A DNA stretch of 64,000 nt, taken from assembly GCA_050287845.1 (NCBI GenBank), contig JBNKCR010000129.1, positions 7,364-71,363 of the forward strand. Direction: 5' to 3'. Shown in pieces: positions 11,665 to 61,775 of this stretch (position 1 is its first letter; each line of letters starts with the position of its first letter). Both the position numbers and the translations under genes were made by a program. Origin of the DNA: Polyangia bacterium (GTDB lineage: Bacteria; Myxococcota_A; Polyangia; JAAYKL01). Below the pieces are notes generated by a model. The model was not told the origin of the DNA. It worked only from the letters and a program-made list of their open reading frames with translations, and searched no databases.

Positions 11665-14154
11665 ATGAAATTTGACCGCTTTCTTCAACGCTGGGCGAGC
11701 ATCGTCTGCCGCTACCCTGTTCGCATCACTGTTTTTGCCCTTGCTTTTGCCCTTGCCGGGGCATTTCTCGCCACTCACATTAAAATAAAGAGTAGTTTCA
11801 CCAATTTGCTTCCGGACAATTCGTCTTCGGTCATCGATTTAAAGGAGATTTCCGCACGCATGGGGGGAATGGGCACCCTGATGATTCAGGTGGAAGGCAA
11901 GAGCCGAAACGACTTGCCGGCCATGGAGAAGTTCGCCGATGATCTGGCGAAGCGAATGGCTGCGTACCCTAAAGATGAAGTGCTTTTTGTGGACTACAAA
12001 GTAGATGCGCCCAAAGGGTTTTTCGAGCGAAATAAATACCTGTATGCCGATAAACAGGAGCTTTCGGATATTTACAAAGAACTCAAGGATTACATCGGCG
12101 ACAAAAAAGCCAAAGCCAATCCGTTCTACATCGATCTCGGAGATAACGACGACGACGAAAAAAAAGAAGCGCTGAATGTGGATGAGTACCGGGAGAAGTA
12201 CAACGAAAAGCTGAGCCGTTTCGATAAATACATTGATGGATATCTTACCAACGAGGCCGGGGATATGCTCATTGTAGTGGTGAAAACCCCCGGCGAAAAT
12301 ACCGGCGTGGATTTTGCGCTTCGCTTTGTGGACAAAGTGGAAAAGGAGATCGCCCAGCTCAATCCCAAAAAGTATTCCAAAAACATGGAGGTGTATCTCA
12401 CCGGAGAGCTCAAAACCCTCCCCGAAGAATACAACGCCCTGCGCAATGACATTCTGTTTGTGTCCAATCTCTGCGTGCTGCTGGTGTTACTGGCCGTATC
12501 CATCTATTACCGGTCGTTCAAGTTGACATTGGTTCTCAGTATTGGCCTGGTGTGTGGGGTGACCACCACCTTCGGTATTGTCTACCTGGCCATCGGATAC
12601 CTCACGGCGGCAACGGCATTTCTTGCGGCGGTGGTTTCCGGGAATGGCATCAATTTTGGCATATACTTCCTGGCGCGGTTCATTGAGGAGCGTGCCAATG
12701 GCAAACCCATGGAAGATACCATCGCCACCACCCTGAAGAGCACGGTGGTGTCGGTGGCCACGGCCGCATTTGCCGCTGGCGCCTCCTATGCATCCCTGAT
12801 GGCCACCCAGTTCAAGGGATTCAACCAGTTCGGGTTCATTGGCGGTATTGGCATGTTGATTTGTCTGGTGTTTGCGCTGACCCTCAACCCCGCATTGCTG
12901 GTTCTGATGGAACGATACTGGCCACTTTCGCAAAAGACGATAAACTCGTTTAAAAACAAAAAGAGTCTGGCGCATGTGGCCGCATGGCTGGTGGAGAACC
13001 ATTCCAGAAAGCTTCTGGTGTTCGGTGCCGTGGCCATTCTGGTATCTACCGTATCCCTGGTGATGTTTCTCCGGGACCCCTTTGAGTACGATTTTCGAAA
13101 TCTTCGCAATCAGTCTTCTCAGAAGTCCGGATCCGGTAAGCGGAGTGGCGAAGCCGAAGCCATTCTGGGAGAGCGGTCCAGTCCACACATCGTACTGGCC
13201 GACAATCTGGAACAGGTGCCTCTCATTAAAAAAGCGCTACGCAAGTATTACAAGGATAATCCTGACGAGCGCTGGCAGGCCATTAAATTCATTAAAACCA
13301 TTTACGACTATCTTCCGGGAACGGTGGCAGAGCAGAAAGAAAAAATCGATATTCTCAATAAAATCCGCGCTCTGGTGCTGAAGAACATCGATTTGCTCGG
13401 TGACGATAAAAAGCGGGACGAAATCATGGAGTTTGTTCCGGAAAAAGAGTTGTCGCCGGTGACGGTGGAAACGGTTCCCGAAGAGCTGGTGCGGCCTTAT
13501 GTGGAGCTGGACGGCACCCGGGGCACGTTGCTGCTGGTGGATATGAACGGCAGTATATGGCGCAAGGAAACCATGGAACGGTTTTCACGGGTCATCAAGC
13601 GGATTCGTCTGGAAGATGGAACAGTTATCCGTTCCAGCGGCAAGGTGGTCATCTTTAACGACATGCTCGATTTTGTGGCCAACGAAGCCCCCTGGGCCAC
13701 CCTGGGGGCGTTCATTGCGGTGCTCATTATTATCGGTATTTCTTTTCGGCGGCTCAAGCATTCGCTCATTGTGGGGGGCGCCATGATGACAGGTGTGATT
13801 CTCATGATGGGCGTTGCAGTGGCGTTTGAACAGAAACTGAACTTCCTTAATTTTATCGCCATTCCCATTCAATTCGGTATCGGGGTGGATTATACGGTGA
13901 ATATCTACGCCCGTTTCCTGCAGGAAGGGCCGGGGTCTATGGGCAGCATCCTGCGAAAAACCGGAGGGGCCGTTCTCATTACCAGCACCACCACCATCAT
14001 CGGGTATGGGTCCATGTGGTTTTCCATCAACGGGGCCATCAACTCCATGGCAAACCTGGCCAACATTGGCGAAGTTACCTGTCTGTTTACAGCCATGTTG
14101 CTGATGCCCGCCTTCGTTGCGGTGTTCGCCCACGGGTTGAAAAAGAAGGCGTAG
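11665..14154 (+). CDS. MMPL-family RND-superfamily exporter (HpnN-like)
   Basis: 829 aa; N-terminal TM helix, large periplasmic loops and two blocks of about six TM helices with sterol-sensing-like GxxxG-rich segments. Confidence 0.8.
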   Translation: MKFDRFLQRWASIVCRYPVRITVFALAFALAGAFLATHIKIKSSFTNLLPDNSSSVIDLKEISARMGGMGTLMIQVEGKSRNDLPAMEKFADDLAKRMAAYPKDEVLFVDYKVDAPKGFFERNKYLYADKQELSDIYKELKDYIGDKKAKANPFYIDLGDNDDDEKKEALNVDEYREKYNEKLSRFDKYIDGYLTNEAGDMLIVVVKTPGENTGVDFALRFVDKVEKEIAQLNPKKYSKNMEVYLTGELKTLPEEYNALRNDILFVSNLCVLLVLLAVSIYYRSFKLTLVLSIGLVCGVTTTFGIVYLAIGYLTAATAFLAAVVSGNGINFGIYFLARFIEERANGKPMEDTIATTLKSTVVSVATAAFAAGASYASLMATQFKGFNQFGFIGGIGMLICLVFALTLNPALLVLMERYWPLSQKTINSFKNKKSLAHVAAWLVENHSRKLLVFGAVAILVSTVSLVMFLRDPFEYDFRNLRNQSSQKSGSGKRSGEAEAILGERSSPHIVLADNLEQVPLIKKALRKYYKDNPDERWQAIKFIKTIYDYLPGTVAEQKEKIDILNKIRALVLKNIDLLGDDKKRDEIMEFVPEKELSPVTVETVPEELVRPYVELDGTRGTLLLVDMNGSIWRKETMERFSRVIKRIRLEDGTVIRSSGKVVIFNDMLDFVANEAPWATLGAFIAVLIIIGISFRRLKHSLIVGGAMMTGVILMMGVAVAFEQKLNFLNFIAIPIQFGIGVDYTVNIYARFLQEGPGSMGSILRKTGGAVLITSTTTIIGYGSMWFSINGAINSMANLANIGEVTCLFTAMLLMPAFVAVFAHGLKKKA

Positions 14155-14336
14155 TTTTTTCCATTCCATTTATTGCCACAGGTTTCGCGCTTTATCCCCG
14201 AAGCAGGCTTCCTTTCCATTGTCGCTGCGAATTCCGCAGGTATGACAGTTGCCCGCCTCTCAGAAGCAATGGTTCATCTCTGGGGGTCATTTATGGATTA
14301 CTTTAGAGATACTTCCGTACATCTCCGGAAGGAGGA

Positions 14337-17177
14337 TTATCCCTTTTCGGCTTTCAGCATGTGAACCACCCGTGAAATGCCGGTGACGATGATGAGACCG
14401 AGGGCGTAGGACATAATGATGAGACTGCCGGTGGAGGTTTTGATGTAGGTATCGCCCGGGCAAAGGGAATAGGAAAAGAGCAGGTTGGAAAATACCACCT
14501 GCAGCAGTAGCAGCGCCGCCGCCAGGGTGGCGGGCAGATACAGATTCGGGCGGCTATCGGGGGTCGATGGCCGCACGGTGAGTCGCACTGTCAGCCAGGC
14601 CAGCAGCAGGGGCTGCAGATAATAAAACACGAGTAGCGCAACACTCACGGGAAGAACCATTGGCATCCGGTAGCCGATAAATGCCTTGAGCACCATGAAG
14701 TTTCCGGGAGTGAACAACTGTCCCTGCATGGTGAGTGTGTGAACAAAGAACACAATAATCAGAAACGCCACATACACATGCCGTCGGAGGCTCCCTTCGA
14801 TATAGGCATTGTGTGCGTACAGCCATCTGAATACCAGTGCCGAGACGAAAAGTACGGTGAACTCTCCCCCTGTTTGCTGCTGGGTCATTACCGCAAGCAG
14901 CAGCAGTAGTAGCCAGTAGTCCCCGTGACCGGGTTTCTCTTTTTTGAGGGCCACAATCAGGAACGCAACCGTTGCCGCGAACAGCACTGCCAGCATGAGA
15001 TTGGAGTCCATGGCACTCAATCGATAAAACAGATGAAGCGAATACACCGCCGCCAGTGCGCTGTAACGAATGGGACGTCCGGCGACACCTTTGTAATGGC
15101 GGTTGATCCAGTATCCGAATCCGGCCAGCGTCACAAAAAAGAGAATACTGTGGCTGAGGGAATTGGTGCGAAGATAAATGGGTAGCTGCCTGAAAAAGTT
15201 GAGGCCGAGTTCGGGAATCTGGCACACGCCGGCAAAGGCAATGATTCCCAGCAGGGGCAAGGCTTTCACCAGCCGGTTTGCCACCGCGCCCGCGTCTGTG
15301 GACTGGTGATAATACGCGGCCGCCAGCAGTACAATATATCCCAGTGGGATAACGTATTGATAGTATCGGCACGGGGTGGCAATGACGAATGCGGTACTGA
15401 GGCCCCACAGCAGCAACGCCCCAACGCCGGGAGCTTCCGTTTTTGTTCGGGAAGCAGTTTTAAGGGCAAATACCAGATACAGCATCGCCGAGATTCCCAG
15501 TGTGGCATACAGATACAGCGCCCGTACGCCCGCAGACTGCTTGAGATACACCTGCGACGGAAACCAGTAAAAAACAAATGAAACTGCGATGGCAGCGATG
15601 GACACAATGCCGGCAGGTCGGAGAATCTGTCGGTTCAGCGCGGGATACAGGGGCATCCCCAGAAGCAGGCTTCCCGCAAACAGCCACCATGAATACGCTT
15701 TGGGCACCGTGAAAATTGCAGCCAGACAAACGATGGCGATGCCGGTGTGCCACAGGGATACGGGGCGGTTGAAGCTGGATGCCCAGAGCAATATCAGGAC
15801 TATGGCCAGAAGAATCCTGGGCAGCAGCAACAACGATGCGCTGGCATCGAATTTAATGCGATTCACCCCGGCAAGGAGCGCATCAATGGATGATGTGTCC
15901 ACGGTTTCACTGTCGCCGAACTGAGCGTTCAATGCGGTGTATAGCTTTTGCTTCTGGTCAAAAAGCTCGCGTTGGGCCAGACTGATCTGGTCCTGATATG
16001 CGGCGGTGAAAATATCCGGGAGCGATCCGCAGTTCTGGGTGGCGAGGGGTGCGCCTGTGAGCACCGATACAATGTTGACAATATCCACCTGGGGAATGGA
16101 CGCCAGCGATGTGTTTTTGATGCCTTCGCCAAAGGCCCACAGAAACGAGGTCTGTTCGTCCTTGCTGATTCCCCCATGCTGTCCGCGTTCGGTGGTGCCA
16201 TGATCACTGAGTACGAGCCACGCAATTTTTTCATTTTTAAATTCATCGGTCAGGTGGAGAAGTTCGGTTTCCAGATGCTGGTGCAGTTCCCTGAGAGGTT
16301 TGCCGTACACACCGTATTTGTGAGACATATGGCCGGTTTCTGCGATATGAATGGTAATGAGACCATTGCGTTTATCGCTGATGGCGGCTCGAAGCTTTTC
16401 CATCATGGTATCTGAGCCGTACTCCACGAAAAGCCCGAGATCCCGTCGGGTGAAGGAATCGTTAATCCCTCGCTTGAAATTGTCCAGCCATAGCGCTTCG
16501 CCGATATGATAGGTGCGCCGACCAGTCATCTGAACATTCTCGAAAATATTGTTGGCCACGGCTTCTTCGGCAAGAAAATCGGATTTTACCTGTACCAGCG
16601 ATGGCTGATCCCCGGTGCCAAGGGTGTAGACACCGGCGATGGTGAAGGTGAAGCTGTCGAGCAGCACCTTTGCCACAAAACCATCATGTTCGGCTTTGGC
16701 GTGCACTCTCTTGAGATTGCGCAGGGCGGTGTCATTGCTCAGGTCATCGTAAATGAACATTACCGTCTGAGATGCAATCGCCTGTCGATCGGTTGGCTGG
16801 GGGGCGAGGTTTGCCACTACTCGGTTCTGAAACCGGAGTTCGAACCATTCGCGTTCATTCAATAGGAACGCGAACGCTACGCCGAAACAGAAAAAAATTA
16901 TTGAGAGTGATGTAATGACCCTGGGTTGGGATAGTCTGAATTCTTTTTGCACAATAACCCCGTTTACGCCGTTTACCCGATACCGGTTGCTGCAATCTGC
17001 TGATGCTGCAGCGACGAAAAGGGATATAGCCTTAAGCCAATAAATTACCAAGGAGAAAAACCGATGAACCTGGCGCTCAGAACGGGGCGATTGGGCAATT
17101 CGCATCATCATTTCGACCACTGTCATCGGGACTGCAAATGAAAAAGGGCAGATTTGGCTTTGTTTGCACTTTTCCAA
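14337..17177 (-). CDS. membrane protein with N-terminal alkaline-phosphatase-superfamily domain (phosphoethanolamine-transferase / PigN-like architecture)
   Basis: 946 aa; TM anchor near aa 87-106; catalytic-type motifs (MFIYDDLSND, HIAETGHMSHKYG, LVLSDHGTTERGQHGG); then about 500 aa of polytopic membrane domain. Start uncertain (alternative Met at 17105). Confidence 0.7.
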   Translation of the reverse strand: MEKCKQSQICPFSFAVPMTVVEMMMRIAQSPRSERQVHRFFSLVIYWLKAISLFVAAASADCSNRYRVNGVNGVIVQKEFRLSQPRVITSLSIIFFCFGVAFAFLLNEREWFELRFQNRVVANLAPQPTDRQAIASQTVMFIYDDLSNDTALRNLKRVHAKAEHDGFVAKVLLDSFTFTIAGVYTLGTGDQPSLVQVKSDFLAEEAVANNIFENVQMTGRRTYHIGEALWLDNFKRGINDSFTRRDLGLFVEYGSDTMMEKLRAAISDKRNGLITIHIAETGHMSHKYGVYGKPLRELHQHLETELLHLTDEFKNEKIAWLVLSDHGTTERGQHGGISKDEQTSFLWAFGEGIKNTSLASIPQVDIVNIVSVLTGAPLATQNCGSLPDIFTAAYQDQISLAQRELFDQKQKLYTALNAQFGDSETVDTSSIDALLAGVNRIKFDASASLLLLPRILLAIVLILLWASSFNRPVSLWHTGIAIVCLAAIFTVPKAYSWWLFAGSLLLGMPLYPALNRQILRPAGIVSIAAIAVSFVFYWFPSQVYLKQSAGVRALYLYATLGISAMLYLVFALKTASRTKTEAPGVGALLLWGLSTAFVIATPCRYYQYVIPLGYIVLLAAAYYHQSTDAGAVANRLVKALPLLGIIAFAGVCQIPELGLNFFRQLPIYLRTNSLSHSILFFVTLAGFGYWINRHYKGVAGRPIRYSALAAVYSLHLFYRLSAMDSNLMLAVLFAATVAFLIVALKKEKPGHGDYWLLLLLLAVMTQQQTGGEFTVLFVSALVFRWLYAHNAYIEGSLRRHVYVAFLIIVFFVHTLTMQGQLFTPGNFMVLKAFIGYRMPMVLPVSVALLVFYYLQPLLLAWLTVRLTVRPSTPDSRPNLYLPATLAAALLLLQVVFSNLLFSYSLCPGDTYIKTSTGSLIIMSYALGLIIVTGISRVVHMLKAEKG

Positions 17178-21594: not shown

Positions 21595-22917
21595 CTAATC
21601 CCAATTGGCCGACTTCGTATCCCATGCGGGATCAGAACAATAGGGGCAACTGTCGCCTACCAGCATTCCTTTTCCGGCGTCGCTTTCATCCCCTTTGAGG
21701 GTCCATTTGAGCCATGCCAGAATAATTTTCGTGAAATCGCCGCTCCCGCCCTGGCCCAGGTCGCCACCGTGTCCGATGTCCTTGCTGAAATACATAATCG
21801 GATTTTCAAGCTTGCTGATGGCATCGTAGTCGCGAAGTCCATTTTCGTAGGCCATATCACTGGGGCCGCCCTGCACAAACAGCACTGGCGTGTGAACGGT
21901 CTGATAAAAGGCATTGTCGGCCGCGAACATGCCGCTGCTGGTCAGCCCCCAGTTTGTCATCCGGGGATCACCTGCGGTGCCTTCGGCCATTAATCCACCG
22001 CAGGAGAAACCGTTGGCTGAGATTTTTGTGGGGTCAAGCTTGTGATAGTAGGGACTGCAGGGTTTGTGATTCTGCTCAATCGCCCAATCAATATATCTGA
22101 TTAGCGGTGCGCCCATTGCAGTCATGTCTCCGGTATCCATGCTGCGATTGCTGGCGTCGCCAGGGGTGCCATCCGCTACAACGAAAAATCCGTAGGAGGC
22201 AATTTCACCCATTGCTGCGGAGTTGGACCCGCCGTTTCGGGAACAAGCACCCTCACCCCATACAAATATGGGGAACCGTTCCTGGGCGTCCAGGTCGGCG
22301 GGACGGTAAATGGTGCCCTCGTTGATGCCGGAATCCGGATTTGTCTCTACCACCACATCATATGGACCGCTTCCGCTGGCGTTTATGCTGCTGACTTTCT
22401 GTGAATCTGTGCAGCTTCCATCAATATCCGGGCCGTCCACGTCACCGTCCGAATCTGTATCGGTGTCGGTGTCTGTATCGGTGTCGGTGTCGGTGTCTGT
22501 GTCTGTGTCGGTATCTGTATCGGTATCAGACTCCGGAATGGTCGCGCCTTCGCAACAGCGCAGCTCTCCTTCGCAGACGCCATTTCTTGCGGTGCCGTCC
22601 CACGAAACGCAGTGGGCCAGACATTCGTATGCGCAGATATCATCTGCATCGGAGTCCGTGTCTGTGTCTGTGTCGGAATCCGTGTCGGTGTCAGTGTCCG
22701 AATCTGTGTCGGTATCGGTATCCGAATCGGTATCAGTATCGGTATCCGAATCTGTGTCGGTATCGGTATCGGTATCCGAATCGGCGTCGCTGTCCGAATC
22801 AGAGTCGTCGGACGAGGAATCGTCTCCGGTGGTGTCCACTCCGCATGTCGGAAATGCGGTACATGCGAAAATCAGCAAAAATGCATACAGTACCATTTTT
22901 ATATTTTTTAACTTCAT
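21595..22917 (-). CDS. secreted alpha/beta-hydrolase esterase with Asp-Thr/Asp-Ser repeat linker
   Basis: Start chosen at MKLKNIKMVLYAFLLIFAC (signal peptide; ORF opens at 22977). Two acidic repeat tracts separated by a six-Cys segment, then a catalytic domain with nucleophile elbow GFSCGG. Confidence 0.75.
   Translation of the reverse strand: MKLKNIKMVLYAFLLIFACTAFPTCGVDTTGDDSSSDDSDSDSDADSDTDTDTDTDSDTDTDTDSDTDTDTDSDTDTDTDSDTDTDTDSDADDICAYECLAHCVSWDGTARNGVCEGELRCCEGATIPESDTDTDTDTDTDTDTDTDTDTDTDTDSDGDVDGPDIDGSCTDSQKVSSINASGSGPYDVVVETNPDSGINEGTIYRPADLDAQERFPIFVWGEGACSRNGGSNSAAMGEIASYGFFVVADGTPGDASNRSMDTGDMTAMGAPLIRYIDWAIEQNHKPCSPYYHKLDPTKISANGFSCGGLMAEGTAGDPRMTNWGLTSSGMFAADNAFYQTVHTPVLFVQGGPSDMAYENGLRDYDAISKLENPIMYFSKDIGHGGDLGQGGSGDFTKIILAWLKWTLKGDESDAGKGMLVGDSCPYCSDPAWDTKSANWD
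22425..22821 (-). repeat. coding hexanucleotide microsatellite (GAY-ACN/AGY)n encoding (D-T/D-S)n
   Basis: Runs of gtatcggtgtcggtgtctgt-type units on the plus strand (about 22440-22520 and 22640-22800), inside esterase codons 53-185. Confidence 0.8.
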
Positions 22918-23317
22918 TATATTGGTTCCTTTCAATTTGTTTTCAGGTCCCGGTTCCATTCGGGGCGAATACTCCATAAAAAATCACAGAATTTTCAGAG
23001 TTCCAGTATCCCGACAGCAAGTGAACAGCGCAGGAATAGTGACATTATTTATGCAAAATGCTGTTTTTCGGAAACGCGACGACTGCGTCGAAAAACATTC
23101 CACGCTGGTTGGTTTCAGTCTGATTGTCGCGTCGGATGCGGATTCGGAGCATATTGACTCCATGCGGATTGTCTAATAAGGAACCCATGAGAAACTGGGC
23201 TTCTGAGCATCTTTTTTTGTAAAGACATCTCAGGGGAAAATGGTAGGATGCCGTTTTTCTGAAAATCAGAAAATCACAATGTATGAACATTCGCAAACTG
23301 GAACATAGGCAACCTGC

Positions 23318-42747: not shown

Positions 42748-43144
42748 ACTCAATCAATTCAGAATCCGCTCGTCTGGCCCGGTTTGGGGCGTCACAATCA
42801 TCGGTTCACTTTCTGTTGAAAAAATAGCGGCAACGTACAATCAGGTTTCTGCATACTCCATGCAGCAGTTTTCGGATAACTTTCCCGTGAATTGCCACCT
42901 GCATTCAGCTTTCGCACACCCTGTAAAAAGCACAGTGCACGATACAGATAGTCTGGGCTTCAATTGTAAAACACTTTTTTTAATTTGCAGGCCCATCCGG
43001 AGTGTGACTGGCATTTCCTGTGCAATGAACACGAACATACTCTTTGCCGGCGAGGAAACCGGGATGCGTTCCGTTTTTGCAGCGCGTCTCAAACAAACAC
43101 TTTTACATTTCCTTAACTATGGGGAAAGACCAGGAGAAAGAATT

Positions 43145-43807
43145 ATGAAAAGAAGAAGTATTTTTGCATTGGTATTGTCGACGATTCTGTCATTTTCAGC
43201 ATTGGCTTCTGCACAGGAAATTATTCCGTCGTTTCAACTTCGTCTCGACAATGAAATTTATCCCATGACTCAGAGTGACCCACAAAGTGAGCCACAGACA
43301 TGGACCGCCGTGTTTTATCTGAACGAGGAGGAAGCTGAGCGAAATGAAGGGGTTCAGGCCAATATTGACTTCCAGATTGGGGATTTGACAGGGGGCACCA
43401 GCTGGTCCTATTGCTACTATCTGGAGGAGAATGTTTCCGTTCCCGAAACCGGACTGATTACAGAGAAAGGTGATATCAATCAGGTGCCTTTCCGCCTGTC
43501 TGCGGACGACCAGATTCCGGGCCGGTACAAAGCAGTACTTAACGCCAGTAGCGGTGCCATCGATTTCACATATCTGGATGAAGGCACCCTGGGAGACGTG
43601 AACCTTGATGGGGTTGTGGATATCGTAGATTCGCTGCTGATTTCTCAGGACTACGTCCACACCCCCATTACCTCTACCTACGAAACGGATCTTGCGGATG
43701 TTAATTGTGATGGAAGCGTGAATGTCGTTGATTCATTGCTGATTGCCCAGGCGTACGTTCAGGTTCAAAGCGCCATCGACACAATCGCGGAATGTGCCGC
43801 CAACTGA
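43145..43807 (+). CDS. secreted protein with C-terminal dockerin-type tandem repeat
   Basis: Start at MKRRSIFALVLSTILSFSALASA (signal peptide, GGAGAAAG RBS upstream; ORF opens at 42860). C-terminus has two Ca-binding-loop-like repeats, DVNLDGVVDIVDSLLISQDYV and DVNCDGSVNVVDSLLIAQAYV. Confidence 0.7.
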   Translation: MKRRSIFALVLSTILSFSALASAQEIIPSFQLRLDNEIYPMTQSDPQSEPQTWTAVFYLNEEEAERNEGVQANIDFQIGDLTGGTSWSYCYYLEENVSVPETGLITEKGDINQVPFRLSADDQIPGRYKAVLNASSGAIDFTYLDEGTLGDVNLDGVVDIVDSLLISQDYVHTPITSTYETDLADVNCDGSVNVVDSLLIAQAYVQVQSAIDTIAECAAN

Positions 43808-44002
43808 AGCGCTGACCACTTAACTCTCCATTTTGATTCGCCTGACCCCGTTTTCTCAATACAATTGAAGCTGACGTTATCAGATGCAGAAATGCGCAGT
43901 CAGTGCCACCAAACAAAATCATTCCGAGCGTATGTGTTGGGGCACTGATGGGAGCAAAGGTGTGGGCGTTCCCACAGCGCATGACGAGGGAAAAAATGGG
44001 GG

Positions 44003-45199
44003 TCAGAACTGGGAGAAAAACGCCCATGTATCAGCGGGAACCCAGGAAGACGCGCCTCCCGGCGTTGGTGTGTTGCCACCGACGAAGATGCAGGCCCGTA
44101 CGGGGTACCCCTGTTGGCAACCTTCGAAATCAACGCACTCCGGTGTATTACCGCTACTATCAGTGGGGTCGGGCATGGCCTCGGCAAATGCATCCCGGCC
44201 CATGCCCGGGTCCGGCGCTATGCACCCGTTTGTCTTCGCAAAATCCTGCAGCGGTGGTACGCCGTACCCCGGATATTTGCAGACACTGTCGTTGATGCCA
44301 TGGGTCATATAATAGGCAACGGGACTGCTGTGCTGCTCGCAGCCACTCATTGGGCCCCCGGAATGAGCCGCAACCGCGCGAATCACATCCCCCATGGCGC
44401 AGGCCATGGCATAGGACATGGAACCGCCCATACTGAAACCCTCGCAGAAAATGCGCGATTTATCGATGCAAAGTTCGTCCTCCATTTTTGAGATCAGCTG
44501 ACGGGAAAATTCGACATCATCCCCATTGCGGTTCCACCAGGCATTGTTCAGCCCCTGGGGGGCGACAAAAATCGTACTCCCCTCGGCCAGATTCCATAGA
44601 CCATAATAGGAGCCCTGACTGACCCAATCCGACGTTTCGCCCATCGAATGATACGCCATCATTAAACGATATGGTTTATTGTTGTCGTAATCATCCGGAA
44701 TCTTGAGGTTGTATGAGCGGCTTGAGCCCGAGACATCTATGGATAGTCCGTTTCCACTCGAAAGCGTCGATGTTTTCCCGCAGCCGGCGCTTTTGTCGGG
44801 ATCACCATCTGTATCGGTATCCGTGTCGGTAACCATTTCCGTTTCCGTTTCCGTTTCCGTTTCCGTTTCCGTTTCCGTTTCCGTGTCCGTGTCGGTATCG
44901 GTATCGGTATCGGTGTCTGAACCCGTGTCGGAATCCGAATCAGAGTCTGAATCCGTGTCGGAGTCTGAATCCGTGTCGGAGTCGGAATCCGTGTCGGAGT
45001 CGGTATCCGAATCTGTATCTGTATCTGTATCGGAATTGGTATCGGTAGCTGTATCGGTATCCGAATTTGAATCGGCATCACTGCTGTTGATGTCACTAGT
45101 CTTATCTTGATTGACTAGTTCTGTATCGACGCACGTTGCCAGGGCAAATGAGATAATCATCAGAAAAAACAGATGTTTCCAGTCAGATATGCAATCCAT
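44003..45199 (-). CDS. secreted esterase (PHB-depolymerase / feruloyl-esterase-like alpha/beta hydrolase) with Asp-Thr/Asp-Ser/Glu-Thr repeat linker
   Basis: Start at MDCISDWKHLFFLMIISFALATC (signal peptide; ORF opens at 45298); about 100-aa acidic repeat tract; catalytic domain with GFSMGGSMSYAMACAMGD nucleophile elbow and several Cys. Confidence 0.75.
   Translation of the reverse strand: MDCISDWKHLFFLMIISFALATCVDTELVNQDKTSDINSSDADSNSDTDTATDTNSDTDTDTDSDTDSDTDSDSDTDSDSDTDSDSDSDSDTGSDTDTDTDTDTDTETETETETETETETEMVTDTDTDTDGDPDKSAGCGKTSTLSSGNGLSIDVSGSSRSYNLKIPDDYDNNKPYRLMMAYHSMGETSDWVSQGSYYGLWNLAEGSTIFVAPQGLNNAWWNRNGDDVEFSRQLISKMEDELCIDKSRIFCEGFSMGGSMSYAMACAMGDVIRAVAAHSGGPMSGCEQHSSPVAYYMTHGINDSVCKYPGYGVPPLQDFAKTNGCIAPDPGMGRDAFAEAMPDPTDSSGNTPECVDFEGCQQGYPVRACIFVGGNTPTPGGASSWVPADTWAFFSQF
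44797..45094 (-). repeat. coding hexanucleotide microsatellite encoding (D-T/D-S/E-T)n
   Basis: Runs of gtatcggtatcggtgtc and gtttccgtttccgtttcc units on the plus strand inside the esterase gene. Confidence 0.8.
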
Positions 45200-45378
45200 A
45201 AAAAGTCTCCCTTCTTCGGTAAACCCTCTAACCGCAACAGAACTTCGCTGCGGTGATGTATTCTCCCGCTGTCTCGGTAGGTTGCCGTGCCAATACAAAG
45301 TGTTGAGGAGAAGGAGAAATGGGTTGGGATATCTGAACTATCGGCGGATGTCAAGATAGTTGTCGCATGAGTGTTGCA

Positions 45379-46224
45379 TCATGCGGCCTCCTTAATTGAG
45401 ACTTTTGCCGGATTGAGGGACACCGTTTCTACCGGGATCCAGTTTCGTGTTTTTCCAGTCCAACGGTTTGGTTCTTTTTGTTTTGCACTCTCATAAACCA
45501 AATGTCGTTGACGCAAAATTTCTTTATCATCACCATTATGGCGCGCCTCGGGGGTAACGAAGCGGATGCCGCTGTGTAAGTGTTTTGTATTGTACCAAAT
45601 CACAAATTTCTCCATCCAGCGCCTTGCTGAATCGATGGATTCAAACGGCTTGTGAGGGTATTCTGGTCTGTACTTTAATGTTCTGAAGATTGACTCGGAA
45701 TAGGGGTTATTATCGCTTACTCCCGGGCGACTGAAAGATGCCATCACGCCAGGCTGGTCAAGTGTCGCAAGCATTGTGGCGCCTTTCATCGGGCCGCCGT
45801 TGTCTGAATGCAAAGAAAGCTGATTTGCATCTACACCATTGGCGTCAATAATCTGGACAATCATGGCAGATGAAATTTCCATACACTCACGGTCGTGAAT
45901 TTCCCATCCAATAATCTTTCTGCTCCAAACGGCCAGCACAAGATACGGATAATAAAACGTTCCTCTGACCGCTGCAGGCAAGTACGAAATATCCCAACTC
46001 CACACCTGATTGGGGCCCGTTGCCAAAAGTTCATCGGGTCGATTGTGCGTTGCGGGTTTTGAGGATTCTCGATGTTGCTGTTGTCCCTCCTCACGAAGAA
46101 TCCGATACATGGGAGACTCGGATGCCACGTACACGCCGCTATCAGCCAACCTGGGTACAATTTGATAGTTCCCTTGAAGGGTTGACCGATACGCCCAAAG
46201 AAGCGCTGACAATGGGCATCGCAT
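45379..46224 (-). mobile_element. IS3-family transposase remnant (OrfB integrase-core part only; OrfA and the 5-prime part missing)
   Basis: Integrase-core (rve) signature PNQVWSWDISYLP...YYPYLVLAVWSRKIIGWEI and the DDE region; no HTH OrfA frame upstream; transposase-like similarity starts only about 30 codons into the ORF. Confidence 0.7.
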
Positions 46225-46439
46225 CTATTCTTGACGCAAAAGAAATCGCGATGCTGGCCATTGGAAAACACAAATCGAAGATTCTTCAGCGGATAGTTGA
46301 GTCACCCCCTTCAATAATGGTACCGGCATCTTTTCTCTTTTCGCACCCTCAGACAGTTATTTTCGCAGACAGTGCAGCCGGCCAACTTCTCGATCGACAA
46401 CGCGCTGACGTGACCTGGTTTCCATCCCCTCTGAAGTAA
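46130..46439 (+). pseudogene. glucosamine-6-phosphate deaminase (NagB/6-phosphogluconolactonase family) 3-prime fragment
   Basis: C-terminal about 80-100 aa (ALTMGIASILDAKEIAMLAIGKHKSKILQRIVE...SHPQTVIFADSAAGQL) parallels E. coli NagB residues about 185-250; no upstream two-thirds of the gene; abuts the IS3 remnant. Confidence 0.6.
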
Positions 46440-46575
46440 CACGTGAACAATTCTGACCAGTGTCGTATTGATGCCGCATCTAAAACGTTTCAGCGGAAGT
46501 GGTCAAGTAAGAGTCGAATATCCTTTTCGCCCTGATTGTCTGTGAAAGGCACTATAACCGGCTCTGAGAGTTCTG

Positions 46576-47448
46576 CTACATGTGCCTGGCGAACAGTTTG
46601 CTCATGGCATCCCGGGAGATGGGGGGCTGTTTTACGAGTGGTGTGGTCTCGATTTGGGGAATCCGGTCCTGGAAAGCGTTGCCGCTGTCATCGTGGTAAA
46701 AGAGCCCCACCGGAATCTCGTCGCCCCAGGCCATGGCTTTTTCAATGGCCCGGATGCGATCGTTGGTTGGATAATCCGGGTCATCGTTGATATTCACGAT
46801 GCGGTCTTTGTACCACTTGAAGGTGTTCACTTTGTTCATGCTCACACAGGGTTGGAGAATTTCGATGTAACTGAGGCCTCTGTGCTTCACGCCCATCTGA
46901 ATCAATTCGGACAGATGTTTGGTGTCGCCTGAAAAACTGCGCGCCACAAAACGACATCCAAGGGTCAGCGCCAGCGCCGGTCCGCGCAGGGGATACGATA
47001 TCACGCCACGGGGCTGAAGCCTGGTCTGCAGTCCCATGTCACTGGTGGGGGACGCCTGCCCCTGGGTCAATCCATAAATCTGATTGTTGTGAACCATCAG
47101 CGTCACATCAATGTCCCTGCGGAGGGTATGCAGAAAATGTCCGCCACCTTCACCATACATATCCCCATCCCCGGAGTTCAGGAGAATGGTCATATCTTCA
47201 TTGGCCAGCTTGGCGCCGGTGGCGGCAGGCAGTGCACGTCCATGAAGACCACAGTATGCGTTGGCCGTGATGTACTGGGGCAGCTTGGCTGCCTGACCGA
47301 TTCCAGCCATCATCATCACTTCGTGGGGTTCTTTGCCCAGCGCTTCCAGTGCGTCCTTTACGGCGGCAAGAATGCCAAAATCGCCGCAACCGGGGCACCA
47401 TGCGGTTTCTTTTACTGTACAGATATTGAACGATTTGCACTCACTCAT
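46576..47448 (-). CDS. 2-oxoacid:ferredoxin oxidoreductase, beta (TPP-binding) subunit
   Basis: 290 aa; N-terminal Cys cluster (CPGCGDFG); TPP-binding GDG motif (NSGDGDMYGEGGGH); overlaps the alpha gene stop/start. Confidence 0.85.
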   Translation of the reverse strand: MSECKSFNICTVKETAWCPGCGDFGILAAVKDALEALGKEPHEVMMMAGIGQAAKLPQYITANAYCGLHGRALPAATGAKLANEDMTILLNSGDGDMYGEGGGHFLHTLRRDIDVTLMVHNNQIYGLTQGQASPTSDMGLQTRLQPRGVISYPLRGPALALTLGCRFVARSFSGDTKHLSELIQMGVKHRGLSYIEILQPCVSMNKVNTFKWYKDRIVNINDDPDYPTNDRIRAIEKAMAWGDEIPVGLFYHDDSGNAFQDRIPQIETTPLVKQPPISRDAMSKLFARHM

Positions 47449-55859: not shown

Positions 55860-58800
55860 ATGTTGGCATATGGAATAGATACCATCAACGAAGCTTTAAA
55901 ACGAAATGCAGAGCAGTATGGCGACGACATTGCGTTCCGATTCATCCAGGGCGGTACAGATGAAAAGAGTATCACCTACGCCGAACTGTATTCGAGAGCG
56001 CTGCAGATAGCTTCGCAGTTTCGATTGGCAGAAATCCCGTTACAGTCGAAGGTATTGATTCTGTATCCGTCCTCCCTTGAATACATCTGCACGCTGTTCG
56101 GTTGTTTTCTGGCGGGGACAACCGCGATACCGGCGTATCCACCGGTGTTCAACCGGTCACTCTCCGCCCTGCGGAATATCGTTCTCGATTCCGGAGCAAC
56201 CATCGCCTGTGTGGAATCGGCGATTCGGGAGCAGTTGCAACCGTTGCTTCACACGGAGTCCTGGCTCGAAAATCTGAACTGGATGACCCCGGAAGAAGAT
56301 GTTGACGACGCCGTCGATACGAGCGCCCTGCCAGATGTGGCGCCGGAAGACCTGGCCGTTCTGCAATACACGTCCGGTTCCACCAGTGCCCCCAAAGGCG
56401 TGATGTTGTCCCATCGAAATCTGGTGGCCAATGCCCATATGCTCATGGCGCGTGTGCAGGCGACCGCCCGGGTAGACAGAATGGTCGCCTGGCTGCCCCC
56501 GTTTCACGATATGGGTCTCATCGGGAGTATTCTGGCGCCGGTATGCGCCCGGGTGGAATCCACCCTGATGCCCCCCAGTTCGTTTATCAAAAAGCCCCTT
56601 CGCTGGCTGGAAGCGATTTCCAGATATCGGGGAACCATCACTGCGGCGCCGGATTTCGCGTACGAGATGTGTGTGCATCGCACCCCTCCGAAGCAGCGGG
56701 AACTGGTGGATCTCTCCAGCCTGCGCGTGGCCCTGAACGGGGCGGAGAAGGTTCGCGAAGACACGCTGAACCTGTTCTGTGATGCGTTTAAATCGCAGGG
56801 ATTCTCAATGTCGGCATTTGCGCCGTCCTACGGGTTGGCGGAAGCGACACTGGGGGTTGCCATCAAACGGAATGGCAATACGCCGCTTGCCCGCCGATTT
56901 GATACGGAGAAACTGAAGGAAGGGTTGGCGGTCCCGGTCGGCGGCGATGACGGCACATCCCTGGTCACCTGCGGCAAGCCCCTCGATGGCGTGGATGTGA
57001 AAATTGTTTCCATTGAAACGCGGCAAGTCGTTACACCCGGGATGATTGGCGAAATTTGGGTGCGCAGCGCCAGCGTGTCCAGGGGATACTGGCAGAAAAT
57101 CGAGTTGAGTCGTGAGATTTTTGAAGGAACGCTGCCTTCGGATGGCAGACCGGATGAGAAGTATCTGGCCACCGGTGATTTGGGATTCCTGTATGACAAT
57201 GAATTGTATGTGACCGGCCGCCACAAGGATCTGATCATTGTGCTGGGGGTCAATCATTATCCGGAAGACATCGAGAAAACAGTTGAATCCGCCCATCCCG
57301 CCATCCGGCAACATACTGTCATTGCGTTTGCGCTGCCGATAAACGGGACCGAGCGCGTGGTGGTGACCACTGAGATTGCCCGGGGCAATGAATTCGCCCT
57401 CGACGACATCATTGGTGCCATCCGCAATGCCATCAGCACCCGACATCAGTTGCCGGTGTACGATATTGTGCTGCTTCCCCAGGGAGGACAGGTGGCCAGG
57501 ACCACCAGCGGGAAGCCACGGCGCAGCGCGTCCCGGCAGAAGTACGAAGCCAACGGGTTTACGCCGCTGGGAAGCAGTCAGATGCAGCAGGGGACAGAAT
57601 CGGGTTCTCCGGCGGAAGAAATTGCAGTGGTCCAGCGGGTCATGGCGGAAGTGCTTTCGGTGGACCGGGTTTCAGCAGACGACGACTTCTTTGCCCTGGG
57701 CGGACATTCGCTCATCGCCACCCAGCTGGCCTCCCGGTTGGCATCTCTCTGGGAAAGAGAGGTGCCCGTGCGGGTGATATTCGAGCGGCCGACGGCTGCC
57801 CGGCTGGCGGGGGTGCGGCACTCGCTGCCGGTGACCGGAAAACGGAATCAGATACAGAAGGTGGACCGAAGCGGTCCGCTGGTGCTTTCCCACTCTCAGG
57901 AGCGAATGTGGCTGTTGCACCAGCTGGAACCGGATGGCACGGCATACAATGTTTCCGGTGCGGTAGTGGTGGATGGTCCGTTCAACGTGGTCCATTGCCA
58001 GACGGCGATGCAGCGCCTGGTTGACCGCCATGAAACCCTGCGAACCACTTTCCCTTCCGAAGGCGGTACGGTTTCTCCCATGATTCACTCCAATGTGAAA
58101 ATCAACGTTGTTTGTGAAGACCTGTCGAGCGCCGATGACCCGCTGGAACAGGCCGCACGCAAGGGGTCGCTGCTGGCCCACAGGCCGTTTGATCTGGCGA
58201 GGGATTTGCTGATACGGGTTGCCATATTCAAAGTTGCCGACGTTCGGCATGCCATTGTCATTTCGATGCATCATGTCATCTCCGATGCATGGTCTCTGGG
58301 CGTGGTGCTCAAAGAAATCATGGAAGACTACCTGGCATTGAACCGGGGCGAAGTTCCGACTTCGGTGGTGCCGGACATTCAGTATGTGGATTACGCGGCC
58401 TGGTTCCGGCCCGTCGTGGAAAGTGAACGGTTCAATGATGAACTGTCGTATTGGCGGAACCGACTGCAGGGCACACCGAATCTTGAACTGCCCACCGATC
58501 GGTCCCCGGGTTCGAATGTGAGTTCAGCAGGGGAAATGGAACGACTGCAAATTTCGGAAACCCTGCGCAATGAAATTGAGGATTTGGCCCATCAACATGG
58601 CGCCACGCCATTCATGGTGATGCTGCTGGCCTTTGAAACCCTGTTGTACCGGTACAGCCGGCAAACGGATTTTGCCATCGGGGTGCCCATTGCCAACCGC
58701 AATCATCATCAGTCCGAACATCTGGTTGGCACCCTGGTCAATACCCTGGCTTTCCGCGCGAATCTGAATCCAAAGGAGGCATTCAGTGCGCAACTGGAAC

Positions 58801-61775
58801 GCATCCGGGAAGACTGCCTCGATGCGTATGCCCATCAGCAGTTGCCGTTTGAGCGGCTGGTGCAGGAACTGCATCTCGAACGGCGAGCGGGACAGACGCC
58901 CCTGGTGCAGGTGATGTTTGACTACGCCAATCCGCCCATGCCAAAGGCCCGGACCGACGAATTTTCGCTATCGCCCCTGTTCATTTCGAGACGGGCTGCC
59001 CAGTTTGATTTGAGTCTGCTCACCCTGGATTCCGAAATCGGATTCGTGACAGCGATGGAATATAGGAGCGATTTATTCGATGCGTCCACCGTGCGGCGCA
59101 TGCTGGACCATTACCTGCGTATTCTGAAATTGGCGGTCACCAATCCCACTCAGCGTCTTTGTGACATGGCGTTTCTTTCTCAGGATGAAATCCGGGAAAT
59201 CGTTGCTCTCGGCGCCAGCACAAATATGAAACCGGTTTCATCGGATACCACGGTCGCGCGCATTGTGGCTGGTGCCGATGGGGTGACAGGTAAAATGGCG
59301 GTGACAGATGAAGTCGATGGGATCACGTACGGCAGGTTGATGGAACTGACTCGTACGGCTGCCGCAAAGATGGCTGCGGCCAACGTGGCAGCGGGAAGCC
59401 GGGTGGCAGTATGTCTGGAACGGTCACGGCTGATGCCGGCGGCACTGCTGGCGGTGCACTGGCTGGATGCGGCGTACGTACCCATCGACCCGCATTTCCC
59501 GGCTGAACGGGTGAGATACATGCTGTCGGAGACCACGCCCGCGGTGGTGGTCTGCGATGAGGCCACCACCGCCGCGTATCCGGAGTTGGCGCAATACCCG
59601 TGTCTGCGGATTGAAGACGTGGTACAGAGCGAGCCCCTCACGCCACCACCTCTGACCACCCGACCCGATTCCACGGCGTATATTATTTTTACTTCCGGCT
59701 CCACGGGAAAACCAAAAGGAGTGGAGATTCCCCAGCGCGCCATGCTGAACTTTCTGGAGTCCATGGCCCATACACCGGGAATGACTGCCACCGATCGCCT
59801 GCTGTCCGTCACCACCATATCGTTTGACATTTCAGTGCTCGAAATCTTTTTACCGCTGCTCTGTCAGGCCGAAGTGAAGATTGTCGGCAGCGATACGGCA
59901 TTGAACGCCCAGAAACTGCGGGGAATACTGGAAGAGACTGATGTCACCGTGATGCAGGCCACGCCGGTCACCTGGCGGATGCTCATTGAATCCGGATGGG
60001 CAGGCAGCGATTTGTTGACGGTACTCTGCGGCGGTGAAGCAATGCCCGCTGATCTGGCGGAACAGTTGGTTACTCGCAGTAAAGCCCTGTGGAATATGTA
60101 TGGGCCTACGGAAACCACCGTGTGGTCCACGGTTCAGCAAATCAGAACAAAGGAAGCCATTGATATTGGCCGGTCCATTGATCGGACCGCAGTGTATATT
60201 CTGGATGCCACAAAACAGCTTTGTCCCATTGGTGTCACTGGCGAAATCTATATCGGCGGCGCCGGCGTGGCCAAAGGATATTTCAAGCGTCCGGAACTCA
60301 CGCAGGAGCGATTTGTCAAAGACCCCTTTACCCCCGGATTCGGCGATCGCATGTATGGTACCGGCGATCTTGGACGCATGCGATCGGATGGCACATTCGA
60401 ATGTTTCGGTCGTCTGGATCATCAGGTGAAAATTCGTGGATACCGCATTGAGCTGGGTGAAATTGAAGTTGCGCTGAAACAATTGCCCGAAGTGGCGGAT
60501 GCGGTGGTCATTCCCTGGGAGGTAACCCCCGGGGATGCGCGTCTTTCCGCCTATATTATCGCAGAAGGGACGGCGCCAGAGAGCGAGCAACTGCGAAATG
60601 TACTTCGAAAATCGCTGCCGGGATACATGGTGCCCAGCTGGTTCACGGTGATGGCCCAGTTCCCCACCACGCCCAACGGTAAAATTGACCGCAAGGCACT
60701 GCCTGGCCCCGATGCGAAACTGGAAGTGCAGAGCCCGCTGAGAGTCGCCCCGCGGAGTGAGACAGAGAAAGCGCTGGCCGTCCTGTGGGCCCGGACCCTG
60801 GATGTGACCCATCCGAGTATTACCGACAACTTCTTCGATGTGGGACACTCGCTGCTGGCTGCCCGGTTGTTCGGGCAAATCGAAAAAGAGATGGGGGTTT
60901 CGCTCCCCCTGTCGGTGCTGTTTTCGCATCCCACCATTGAGATGCTGTCCGCATACATCGACGGACAGGTCGATGAACTGGGGTATTACGAACTGAAATA
61001 TGTGGTGCCCATCAAACCCCGGGGGCGCGCCACGCCGGTGTTCTGTATCCACGGCGCCGGGGGGAACGTGCTCAATTTTGAGTCCCTCGCAAGGCATATC
61101 GACGCGGATTGTCCACTGTATGCCATCCAGGCCCGTGGGGTGCATGGCACGGAAACGCCCTTTGACACCATTGAAAAGACGGCGTCGGCCTATCTGGAAG
61201 AAGTCATGGAGATTCAACCGACCGGTCCATACATTATCATGGGATACTGCGCCGGTGGGGTTGTGGCATTTGAAATGGCCAGGCAGATTCAGTTGAAAGG
61301 TGACATGGTGCGGGATTTGATTCTGATAGATACGTTCCGTCCCGGGGTTGGCTATACCATTCCCTCATTCGGCAAACGGGTGCTTCGCGCGGCGACCAAA
61401 GGTCCGGGGCATTTCTTCCGACACAGTTTCTCCAGGCTGCATCGAATTAAAGAGGACAACGCCAATCTGAAGGCGCTGAACAGGCACCTGAGCGCCGGCG
61501 AGCCGGTGCCCCACGAACTGAGGACCCTTTGGCTGACCCGGGCGTTTCTGGACTCCGTTGAAAAGTACCAGCTGCCGGTGTACGATGGGGCACTCACCAT
61601 CTTTGAAGCGGCGGATGTTCCTTCGGATCTGGTGTGCAGTGAGCCCAATCTGGGATGGGATGGATACGCTGCGTCCATCAGTTGCACCAAAGTGCCGGGA
61701 GGCCACCTCACCCTCACCGACGAACCCAACGCAAAAGTCCTGGCCACCGAACTCTGCAACCGCCTCCACCGCTGA
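55860..61775 (+). CDS. non-ribosomal peptide synthetase, FAAL - carrier - C - A - carrier - TE (single amino-acid module with lipid-loading domain)
   Basis: 1971 aa. FAAL-like domain aa 1-565 (TSGSTSAPKGV). Carrier GGHSL (Ser617). C domain HHVISDAWS (aa 804-812). A domain core motifs FTSGSTGKPKGV, FDIS, NMYGPTE, GEIYIGGAGVAKGY, YGTGDL, GRLDHQVKIRGYRIELGEIE, LPGYMVP, PNGKIDRKAL. Second carrier FFDVGHSL (Ser1664). TE with IHGAGGN and GYCAG. Confidence 0.9.
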   Translation: MLAYGIDTINEALKRNAEQYGDDIAFRFIQGGTDEKSITYAELYSRALQIASQFRLAEIPLQSKVLILYPSSLEYICTLFGCFLAGTTAIPAYPPVFNRSLSALRNIVLDSGATIACVESAIREQLQPLLHTESWLENLNWMTPEEDVDDAVDTSALPDVAPEDLAVLQYTSGSTSAPKGVMLSHRNLVANAHMLMARVQATARVDRMVAWLPPFHDMGLIGSILAPVCARVESTLMPPSSFIKKPLRWLEAISRYRGTITAAPDFAYEMCVHRTPPKQRELVDLSSLRVALNGAEKVREDTLNLFCDAFKSQGFSMSAFAPSYGLAEATLGVAIKRNGNTPLARRFDTEKLKEGLAVPVGGDDGTSLVTCGKPLDGVDVKIVSIETRQVVTPGMIGEIWVRSASVSRGYWQKIELSREIFEGTLPSDGRPDEKYLATGDLGFLYDNELYVTGRHKDLIIVLGVNHYPEDIEKTVESAHPAIRQHTVIAFALPINGTERVVVTTEIARGNEFALDDIIGAIRNAISTRHQLPVYDIVLLPQGGQVARTTSGKPRRSASRQKYEANGFTPLGSSQMQQGTESGSPAEEIAVVQRVMAEVLSVDRVSADDDFFALGGHSLIATQLASRLASLWEREVPVRVIFERPTAARLAGVRHSLPVTGKRNQIQKVDRSGPLVLSHSQERMWLLHQLEPDGTAYNVSGAVVVDGPFNVVHCQTAMQRLVDRHETLRTTFPSEGGTVSPMIHSNVKINVVCEDLSSADDPLEQAARKGSLLAHRPFDLARDLLIRVAIFKVADVRHAIVISMHHVISDAWSLGVVLKEIMEDYLALNRGEVPTSVVPDIQYVDYAAWFRPVVESERFNDELSYWRNRLQGTPNLELPTDRSPGSNVSSAGEMERLQISETLRNEIEDLAHQHGATPFMVMLLAFETLLYRYSRQTDFAIGVPIANRNHHQSEHLVGTLVNTLAFRANLNPKEAFSAQLERIREDCLDAYAHQQLPFERLVQELHLERRAGQTPLVQVMFDYANPPMPKARTDEFSLSPLFISRRAAQFDLSLLTLDSEIGFVTAMEYRSDLFDASTVRRMLDHYLRILKLAVTNPTQRLCDMAFLSQDEIREIVALGASTNMKPVSSDTTVARIVAGADGVTGKMAVTDEVDGITYGRLMELTRTAAAKMAAANVAAGSRVAVCLERSRLMPAALLAVHWLDAAYVPIDPHFPAERVRYMLSETTPAVVVCDEATTAAYPELAQYPCLRIEDVVQSEPLTPPPLTTRPDSTAYIIFTSGSTGKPKGVEIPQRAMLNFLESMAHTPGMTATDRLLSVTTISFDISVLEIFLPLLCQAEVKIVGSDTALNAQKLRGILEETDVTVMQATPVTWRMLIESGWAGSDLLTVLCGGEAMPADLAEQLVTRSKALWNMYGPTETTVWSTVQQIRTKEAIDIGRSIDRTAVYILDATKQLCPIGVTGEIYIGGAGVAKGYFKRPELTQERFVKDPFTPGFGDRMYGTGDLGRMRSDGTFECFGRLDHQVKIRGYRIELGEIEVALKQLPEVADAVVIPWEVTPGDARLSAYIIAEGTAPESEQLRNVLRKSLPGYMVPSWFTVMAQFPTTPNGKIDRKALPGPDAKLEVQSPLRVAPRSETEKALAVLWARTLDVTHPSITDNFFDVGHSLLAARLFGQIEKEMGVSLPLSVLFSHPTIEMLSAYIDGQVDELGYYELKYVVPIKPRGRATPVFCIHGAGGNVLNFESLARHIDADCPLYAIQARGVHGTETPFDTIEKTASAYLEEVMEIQPTGPYIIMGYCAGGVVAFEMARQIQLKGDMVRDLILIDTFRPGVGYTIPSFGKRVLRAATKGPGHFFRHSFSRLHRIKEDNANLKALNRHLSAGEPVPHELRTLWLTRAFLDSVEKYQLPVYDGALTIFEAADVPSDLVCSEPNLGWDGYAASISCTKVPGGHLTLTDEPNAKVLATELCNRLHR

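Follow-up and report, generated by a model that had tools for sequence, protein, structure and literature searches.

Does a hydrolase gene that carries a conspicuous acidic repeat owe that repeat to a mobile module, and does it still encode an enzyme? The question is raised by a stretch of 64,000 nucleotides from a Polyangia bacterium (GTDB lineage Bacteria; Myxococcota_A; Polyangia; JAAYKL01; NCBI GenBank assembly GCA_050287845.1, contig JBNKCR010000129.1, positions 7,364 to 71,363 of the forward strand), here called the window, to which all coordinates below refer. Two genes on its minus strand, gene A (44003..45199) and gene B (21595..22917), encode alpha/beta-hydrolase domains preceded by a signal and by long runs of acidic dipeptides. 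The first-pass annotation described gene A as a second esterase with the architecture of gene B and suggested that the shared repeat tract was a mobile or convergently acquired module. Our own reading, to which we give a probability of about 0.62, is that gene A encodes an exported protein of the FaeC fold on an acidic spacer that grew in place, that it has lost the histidine of its catalytic triad and is most likely inactive, and that it lies in a locus rearranged in association with an insertion sequence (IS). The loss of the histidine and the position of the gene within an IS-scarred indel are additions to what the first-pass annotation had recorded.

The catalytic domain and its family

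The coding sequence of gene A, as given by the list of open reading frames (ORFs) and the sequence, runs on the minus strand from an ATG at 45199 to a stop codon at 44003 and specifies 398 amino acids that comprise a signal peptide, an acidic spacer and an alpha/beta-hydrolase domain of the FaeC family. The catalytic-type domain (residues 137-398; 44006..44791, minus strand) was characterised with an AlphaFold2 model, Foldseek and profile searches. Using phmmer, the full domain was matched to chain 8jh8_A of the Protein Data Bank (PDB) with an E-value of 2.1e-44 (query 5-267, chain 8-248), and a family profile searched against the PDB returned 8jh8 with an E-value of 2.4e-61. The AlphaFold2 model, built on 41 sequences, reached a predicted local distance difference test score (pLDDT) of 94.5 and a predicted template modelling score (pTM) of 0.92. 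Foldseek again placed 8jh8_A at the top (E-value 1.1e-26; template modelling scores 0.85/0.94, the latter normalised to the target; root-mean-square deviation 2.1), and the next matches were AoAxeB and esterases of the polyhydroxybutyrate (PHB) depolymerase family.

PDB entries 8JH8 and 8JH9 are feruloyl esterase D of Acremonium alcalophilum (AaFaeD), a member of the FaeC family of the ESTHER database and of subfamily SF5 of the fungal feruloyl esterases, and the members of that ESTHER family are feruloyl and acetyl-xylan esterases (PMC12103068). In a structure-based alignment AaFaeD is 37% identical to gene A, and the two have in common the GxSxG elbow, the HGxxD acid motif, the cysteine pattern and the C-terminal ...FFSQF. 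They differ in that gene A is bacterial and has a 113-residue acidic N-terminal spacer, which the fungal chain lacks, in roughly 20 residues (330-353) that gene A has inserted in a surface region, and in an asparagine of gene A at the place of the histidine in the 'GGH' of AaFaeD. Gene A also has ten cysteines, most of them at family-invariant positions, along with a GFSMGG elbow. Its first-pass description as a protein with a signal peptide, about 100 residues of acidic repeats and a GFSMGG hydrolase domain with several cysteines was accurate. By sequence and predicted fold, gene A is a homologue of the secreted esterases of the FaeC family, carried on a low-complexity tether typical of its lineage, and as such a protein of a kind already known.

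A total of 762 homologues of gene A were found. The 120 closest are for the most part unnamed metagenome proteins and, where named, come mostly from metagenome-assembled genomes (MAGs) of Polyangiaceae, Deltaproteobacteria and Fibrobacteria. Bacterial members (e.g. P0001, and P0038 as 'Ricin and PHB depolymerase fusion') are usually labelled 'PHB depolymerase' in their sources, and these esterases are 60-78% identical to the catalytic domain of gene A. Gene A itself scored below the curated cut-offs of the polyhydroxyalkanoate (PHA) depolymerase models, which it covered only in part (NF050058, 68.7 against 150 bits; TIGR01840 esterase_phb, 38.2 against 107.85), and it ends at the catalytic domain (...FFSQF), with none of the linker and C-terminal substrate-binding domain of PHB depolymerases. 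Because the PHA depolymerase models match below their cut-offs, the label on the bacterial homologues is a family-level name and not a demonstrated function.

Loss of the presumed triad histidine

Gene A was aligned with the 120 homologues closest to it; residue 376 is Asn in gene A (codon AAC; 44072..44074, minus strand) and His in all 120, and the His codon CAC is one base away. The alignment holds 35 columns that are invariant among the homologues, and position 376 is the only one of these at which gene A deviates. Asn376 aligns with the His of 'GGH' in 8jh8 and, in the AlphaFold2 model, lies in the loop that follows the last core strand (E236-241, domain numbering) and precedes the last helix, which is the canonical loop of the catalytic histidine. 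The other two members of the presumed triad are kept. Ser256 (AGT; 44432..44434, minus strand), the nucleophile of the GFSMGG elbow, is Ser in 120/120 homologues and is modelled between strand E114-124 and helix H126-137. Asp304 (GAC; 44288..44290, minus strand), the presumed triad acid in the motif HGIND, is Asp in 119 of the 120 and comes after strand E164-170.

The wider family, taken as 146 representatives of clusters at 50% identity, has His in 111 of the 126 aligned cells of this column, and the remaining cells stand beside alignment gaps. At 4 of the 79 columns with a conservation of 95% or more, gene A departs from the family (family median 0), and a neighbour-joining tree of the catalytic domain gives it a terminal branch roughly double the median length. 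In alpha/beta-hydrolases that lack the general-base histidine, hydrolysis is abolished or crippled, with activity lower by orders of magnitude. With Asn in the place of the invariant His of the Ser-Asp-His triad, gene A is probably not a working esterase, and its product would be catalytically dead or severely impaired. A one-base change would have turned the triad histidine into Asn while leaving Ser256 and Asp304 in place, and the gene may thus be either recently inactivated or a non-catalytic binder.

It might be objected that gene A encodes a secreted esterase with full activity after all, the Asn376 codon being an assembly or consensus error or a minority variant of the population, or another residue serving as the base. 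The ORF is intact, the Ser, the Asp, His184 of the oxyanion region and all conserved cysteines are kept, the codon composition is native, and the ribosome-binding site is good (AGGGAG, 7 nt 5' of the ATG). However, the loop FVGGNTPTPGG contains no other histidine, the residue beside Asn376 is also off the majority (Gly, where 89 of 120 homologues have Asp), three more deviations fall at highly conserved columns, and the general loss of activity in enzymes without the histidine counts against it as well. We consider an active enzyme unlikely.

Start site and signal peptide

Residues 1-23 of gene A (MDCISDWKHLFFLMIISFALATC; 45131..45199, minus strand), read from the sequence, form a hydrophobic, putative signal peptide with an A-L-A cleavage-type motif followed by T-C. 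A check for the lipobox pattern [LVI][ASTVI][GAS]C gave L-A-T-C, in which Thr at -1 is non-canonical, and the A-L-A motif of signal peptidase I overlaps it; the homologues of gene A have canonical lipoboxes at the equivalent place. The n-region MDCISDWKH (residues 1-9; 45173..45199, minus strand) has a net charge of about -1, where a positive charge is usual. This unusual charge may be another sign of decay, or the true start may be elsewhere: the frame stays open further upstream, where TTG at 45298 is an alternative start. The start site and the efficiency of export are accordingly uncertain, although a Sec-type signal peptide would be expected to export the product.

The acidic spacer

Between the signal peptide and the catalytic domain, gene A encodes an acidic low-complexity spacer (residues 24-136; 44792..45130, minus strand) of D-T/D-S and then E-T dipeptide repeats with a net charge of -45. 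Its 113 residues include 47 Asp and Glu and 48 Thr and Ser, and it is presumably disordered. A six-frame translation of the window showed runs of at least five [DE][TS] dipeptides in genes A and B only. Antisense ORFs of the (VS)n/(SE)n type at 44703..45110 and 22310..23176, both on the plus strand, run through the two repeat tracts and are mirror-image artefacts, not genes.

Tandem Repeats Finder reported periods of 6 and 18 nt over 44836..45079 of gene A. Within this region lies a near-perfect run of the hexamer (GAAACG)n, encoding (ET)n (44836..44890, minus strand; 9.2 copies, 97% matches), and the longest exact self-repeat, 43 nt, exceeds that of every synonymous-codon shuffle (maximum 38). 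Since the repeat is longer than in any codon shuffle, the run is read from the sequence as a recent expansion by slippage, in frame and in place. As the (GAAACG)n run is in frame, slippage there alters the length of the spacer with the ORF unbroken, and the run is a candidate site of length polymorphism in the population.

Is this spacer part of a module common to gene A and gene B? Gene B combines a lipobox-like signal, an acidic tract, a six-cysteine mini-module, a second acidic tract and a PETase/cutinase-like hydrolase domain in which Ser305 and His383 are intact. Its domain matches 9w68 and 2fx5 (E-values 6e-12 to 3e-10), and Pfam PF12740 is found in its homologues. The catalytic domains of the two genes have no similarity detectable by BLASTP (best E-value 9.8), as expected of different alpha/beta-hydrolase families, to which their sequences assign them. 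The first-pass annotation was thus right that the catalytic sequences differ and that gene A is no recent duplicate of gene B, a candidate that we rejected on the same comparison. Its view that the two have the same architecture stands for the general layout and fails in two details: the elbow of gene B is GFSCGG, and the acidic tract of gene B is split in two by the mini-module (ICAYECLAHCVSWDGTARNGVCEGELRCCEG; residues 93-128, 36 residues; 22534..22650, minus strand), which has no Pfam match. This C-x-Y-E-C...CC module recurs, likewise between acidic repeats, in 1 of 120 gene B homologues (P0150, from GCA_050291665.1), and is possibly a small disulfide-rich binding domain.

The proposal that the acidic tract moved between hydrolase genes as a module, for example by recombination or IS activity, had some initial appeal, in that D-T/D-S tracts occupy the same position on two unrelated hydrolase domains of the 64-kb window and the remnant of an IS3 element adjoins gene A. 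The DNA argues otherwise. The longest exact match between the linker-coding regions of the two genes is 23 nt, and in a null model in which the proteins were held fixed and synonymous codons shuffled, the mean was 17.7 and 23 nt was reached in 5% of shuffles. Tandem Repeats Finder gave periods of 6 and 18 nt for gene A and of 12 and 24 nt for gene B, and the preferred Thr codons also differ (ACG in 14 of 31 in gene A, ACC in 19 of 32 in gene B). Moreover, the IS3 remnant lies outside gene A and not at the boundaries of the spacer, the spacers that relatives in both families have at this site differ in composition, and P0150, which resembles an orthologue of gene B, has the split acidic layout of gene B with other repeat units (DGD/DAD/DTD). 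Because P0150 keeps this layout with different units, vertical inheritance with local remodelling is favoured. A mobile module is in our judgement very improbable, and the two spacers look, on the sequence evidence, to have been built locally and independently by slippage, with no sign of a transferable module. The idea of a convergently acquired tract survives to the extent that a spacer position conserved in both families was remodelled locally in each; such remodelling is ordinary. A protein search with the linker alone retrieved 53 proteins that are short and of low complexity, belong to unrelated taxa (Deltaproteobacteria, Alphaproteobacteria, Methanoregula and Lokiarchaeota) and come with no domain information, a result that shows just that such acidic tracts are widespread.

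Spacers of the homologues and comparison with known tethers

Of the 120 homologues closest to gene A, about 70 have an N-terminal extension of more than 100 residues. In the 21 sequences in which the extension was read, most begin with a lipobox-type signal that is followed by a spacer, and the bacterial esterases labelled as PHB depolymerases thus have the same order as gene A: signal, long low-complexity spacer and catalytic domain. They differ from gene A in that their spacers, rich in Gly, Thr, Ser and Ala, follow canonical lipoboxes, and in that all have the histidine. Nearly all of these spacers are dominated by Gly (G/T/S/A); acidic ones occur in P0052 (GDGDADAD) and in the fragment P0119 (TDTDTD). 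In the gene B family, 74 spacers are Gly-rich and a few are rich in Thr, Ser, Pro or Asp, and P0150 repeats the succession of acidic tract, six-cysteine module and acidic tract seen in gene B.

The neighbour-joining tree groups gene A with P0004, P0001, P0003, P0012 and P0025, and then with P0038 and P0052. Within this clade the spacers of P0001, P0003, P0012 and P0038 are rich in Gly or Ala and that of P0052 is acidic; the fragments P0004 and P0025 have little spacer or none. Because proteins with acidic and with Gly-type spacers are interleaved in so small a clade, the type of spacer appears from the sequences to switch between close relatives. Nearly all full-length homologues in both families have a long spacer at this place, so that a long low-complexity tether is, as far as the sequences tell, the ancestral and normal layout in both, in which the composition alone varies.

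Acidic dipeptide stalks are also known from the staphylococcal adhesins of the MSCRAMM type (microbial surface components recognizing adhesive matrix molecules; ClfA, ClfB, SdrC and SdrD), in which they serve as an extended spacer between the anchor and the functional domain. NCBIfam models of these Ser-Asp stalks match the repeat region of gene A by composition only (44-47 bits against cut-offs of 999-2500). Unlike in the adhesins, the repeat of gene A is N-terminal, beside the signal peptide, and its sequence has no LPXTG motif and no adhesin A-domain. The spacer is also far longer than the linkers of Escherichia coli lipoproteins. Two published observations favour its reading as a tether: outer-membrane lipoproteins of Gram-negative bacteria commonly have disordered linkers at the N terminus (bioRxiv 10.1101/2021.01.05.425367), and the Pro/Thr/Ser linkers of cellulases are conserved in length and type over sequence (PMC3490864). 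Such linkers, like the spacer of gene A, are low-complexity tethers from the membrane or anchor end to a folded domain; that of gene A differs in being strongly polyanionic and in following a signal that has no canonical lipobox. By analogy with the tethers of its lipoprotein-type relatives, the polyanionic spacer of about 110 residues would hold the domain away from the cell surface. Its unusual composition would have arisen in place by replication slippage rather than by import of a module common to gene B.

The gene A locus

Gene A is convergent with a gene for a secreted dockerin-domain protein (43145..43807, plus strand; Pfam Dockerin_1, E-value 1.8e-9) and adjoins the remnant of an IS3-family transposase (45379..46224, minus strand), which lies directly upstream on the same strand; the neighbourhood is as first annotated. 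The remnant consists of the integrase-core part, with no orfA (Pfam rve and rve_3, E-values of about 2e-13; NCBIfam IS3, 150 bits with the cut-off at 160, covering positions 150-367 of the 369 in the model). Beyond it is a probable 3' fragment of a gene resembling glucosamine-6-phosphate isomerase/6-phosphogluconolactonase (46188..46439, plus strand; PF01182, model positions 167-217 of 225, E-value 1.4e-5, 25.5 bits against a cut-off of 27). This fragment and the IS3 remnant meet head-on at the 5' end where the remnant is truncated, an arrangement that looks like the scar of an IS-mediated deletion.

The closest genome found was the MAG Deltaproteobacteria bacterium ZodW_Metabat.284 (here L001), whose citrate synthase is 83% identical to that of the window. 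Both have the same order of genes for a helicase, citrate synthase, the dockerin protein (15293..15943 in L001), the beta and alpha subunits of a 2-oxoacid:ferredoxin oxidoreductase and a rubrerythrin-like protein. The distance from the dockerin gene to the oxidoreductase beta gene is 95 bp in L001 and 2.77 kb in the window, and homology between the two ends at the two stop codons. The additional block of 2.8 kb in the window, which has no counterpart at this site in L001, contains gene A, the IS3 remnant and the PF01182 fragment. This arrangement points to an IS-associated rearrangement at the locus. The indel could represent a gain or rearrangement in the window or a loss in L001; the two gene remnants at the site show that rearrangement took place there in the lineage of the window.

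Since L001 keeps the dockerin gene without gene A, the two are accidental neighbours and not a functional pair. A test of gene A as a cellulosome component gave no Dockerin_1 match in gene A, the dockerin being encoded by the gene beside it. When metagenomes were scanned with the dockerin protein in order to polarise the indel, two distant dockerin-domain matches alone were returned. A composite transposon was rejected, as there is a single truncated IS3 orfB on one side only and no bracketing repeats; around 43808..46575 no matching inverted or direct repeats were found beyond 15-19-mers at chance level. The GC content at third codon positions (GC3) is 0.63 in the catalytic part of gene A, 0.57-0.66 in most neighbouring host genes, 0.52 in the dockerin gene and 0.48 in the IS3 remnant, values that mark gene A as compositionally native and the IS3 element as foreign. 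On the same grounds we rejected a recent horizontal acquisition from high-GC Polyangiaceae, the source of the best matches.

Scans of 43700..46700 for promoters and terminators returned nothing above shuffled expectation. The dockerin gene and gene A are separated by 195 bp, in which a 16-nt inverted repeat at 43900..43948 (81% complementary, 17-nt loop) may be a terminator hairpin used by both; the scan for consensus terminators did not report it. L001 has a gene of 1130 amino acids (11566..14958) between the citrate synthase and dockerin genes, where the window has only some 400 bp (42748..43144); counting the gene A block, two indels fall inside 4 kb of housekeeping genes that are otherwise syntenic. 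Farther along the window, at 55860..61775 on the plus strand, is a gene of 1971 amino acids resembling a non-ribosomal peptide synthetase, with AMP-binding, condensation, AMP-binding, PP-binding and thioesterase domains.

Weighing the interpretation

Several observations count against reading gene A as an inactivated gene for an exported protein in a rearranged locus. The n-region of the signal has no net positive charge, so that export is not certain, and the single relative L001 does not settle the direction of the indel. The GC3 of the catalytic part equals that of the host genes, and gene A is therefore not a fresh import. The role of residue 376 as the catalytic base is deduced from its invariance and its place in the predicted topology. 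The change from His to Asn is a single base in a single assembly; exact-sequence look-ups with gene A and the neighbouring citrate synthase gene found no public contig with an independent copy of the locus, and a scan of metagenomes for the sequence surrounding the Asn codon, with the codon itself entered as NNN, gave 0 matches. Finally, the ORF is intact to the family-conserved C-terminal ...SQF with every family-invariant Cys, the nucleophile Ser and the acid Asp retained, and purifying selection on the fold may for this reason still be acting.

The last point would suit a repurposed pseudoenzyme under selection, one that is tethered at the surface and binds feruloylated or acetylated xylan, or polyester, without catalysis, and whose polyanionic stalk has a function of its own (e.g. 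cation binding or cell-surface repulsion). The residues of the fold, the disulfide cysteines and the Ser and Asp of the substrate pocket are preserved with the base alone lost, and the spacer is long and still expanding. Yet no second member without the histidine occurs among the 120 closest homologues, so that there is no pseudoenzyme clade, and the non-His cells of the wider family are those beside alignment gaps; gene A, moreover, sits among gene remnants and has a weak signal n-region. We hold this explanation to be improbable. A bolder form of it, in which gene A is a selected, surface-displayed pseudo-esterase that binds or senses esterified plant or polyester polymers without hydrolysing them, on a hyper-acidic stalk of slippage-variable length, and in which the D-T/D-S stalk is a tether style of exoproteins throughout this uncultured deltaproteobacterial group, seems to us marginally less probable again. 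Inactivation is the most likely explanation of gene A, ahead of a repurposed binder and of an assembly error.

Implications

Automatic annotation would call gene A a PHB depolymerase or esterase, and metabolic reconstructions of this uncultured anaerobe would include it in that role. Among solved structures its nearest relative is a feruloyl esterase of the fungal type, and gene A has no catalytic histidine, which calls for caution with such annotations. The spacer offers a small example of how the low-complexity tethers of secreted bacterial hydrolases may keep their position while their composition is rebuilt by local slippage and not by module shuffling. If selection were shown to act on the protein without its histidine, this would count as a naturally occurring pseudo-esterase binder and be of some interest for the design of polymer-binding proteins.

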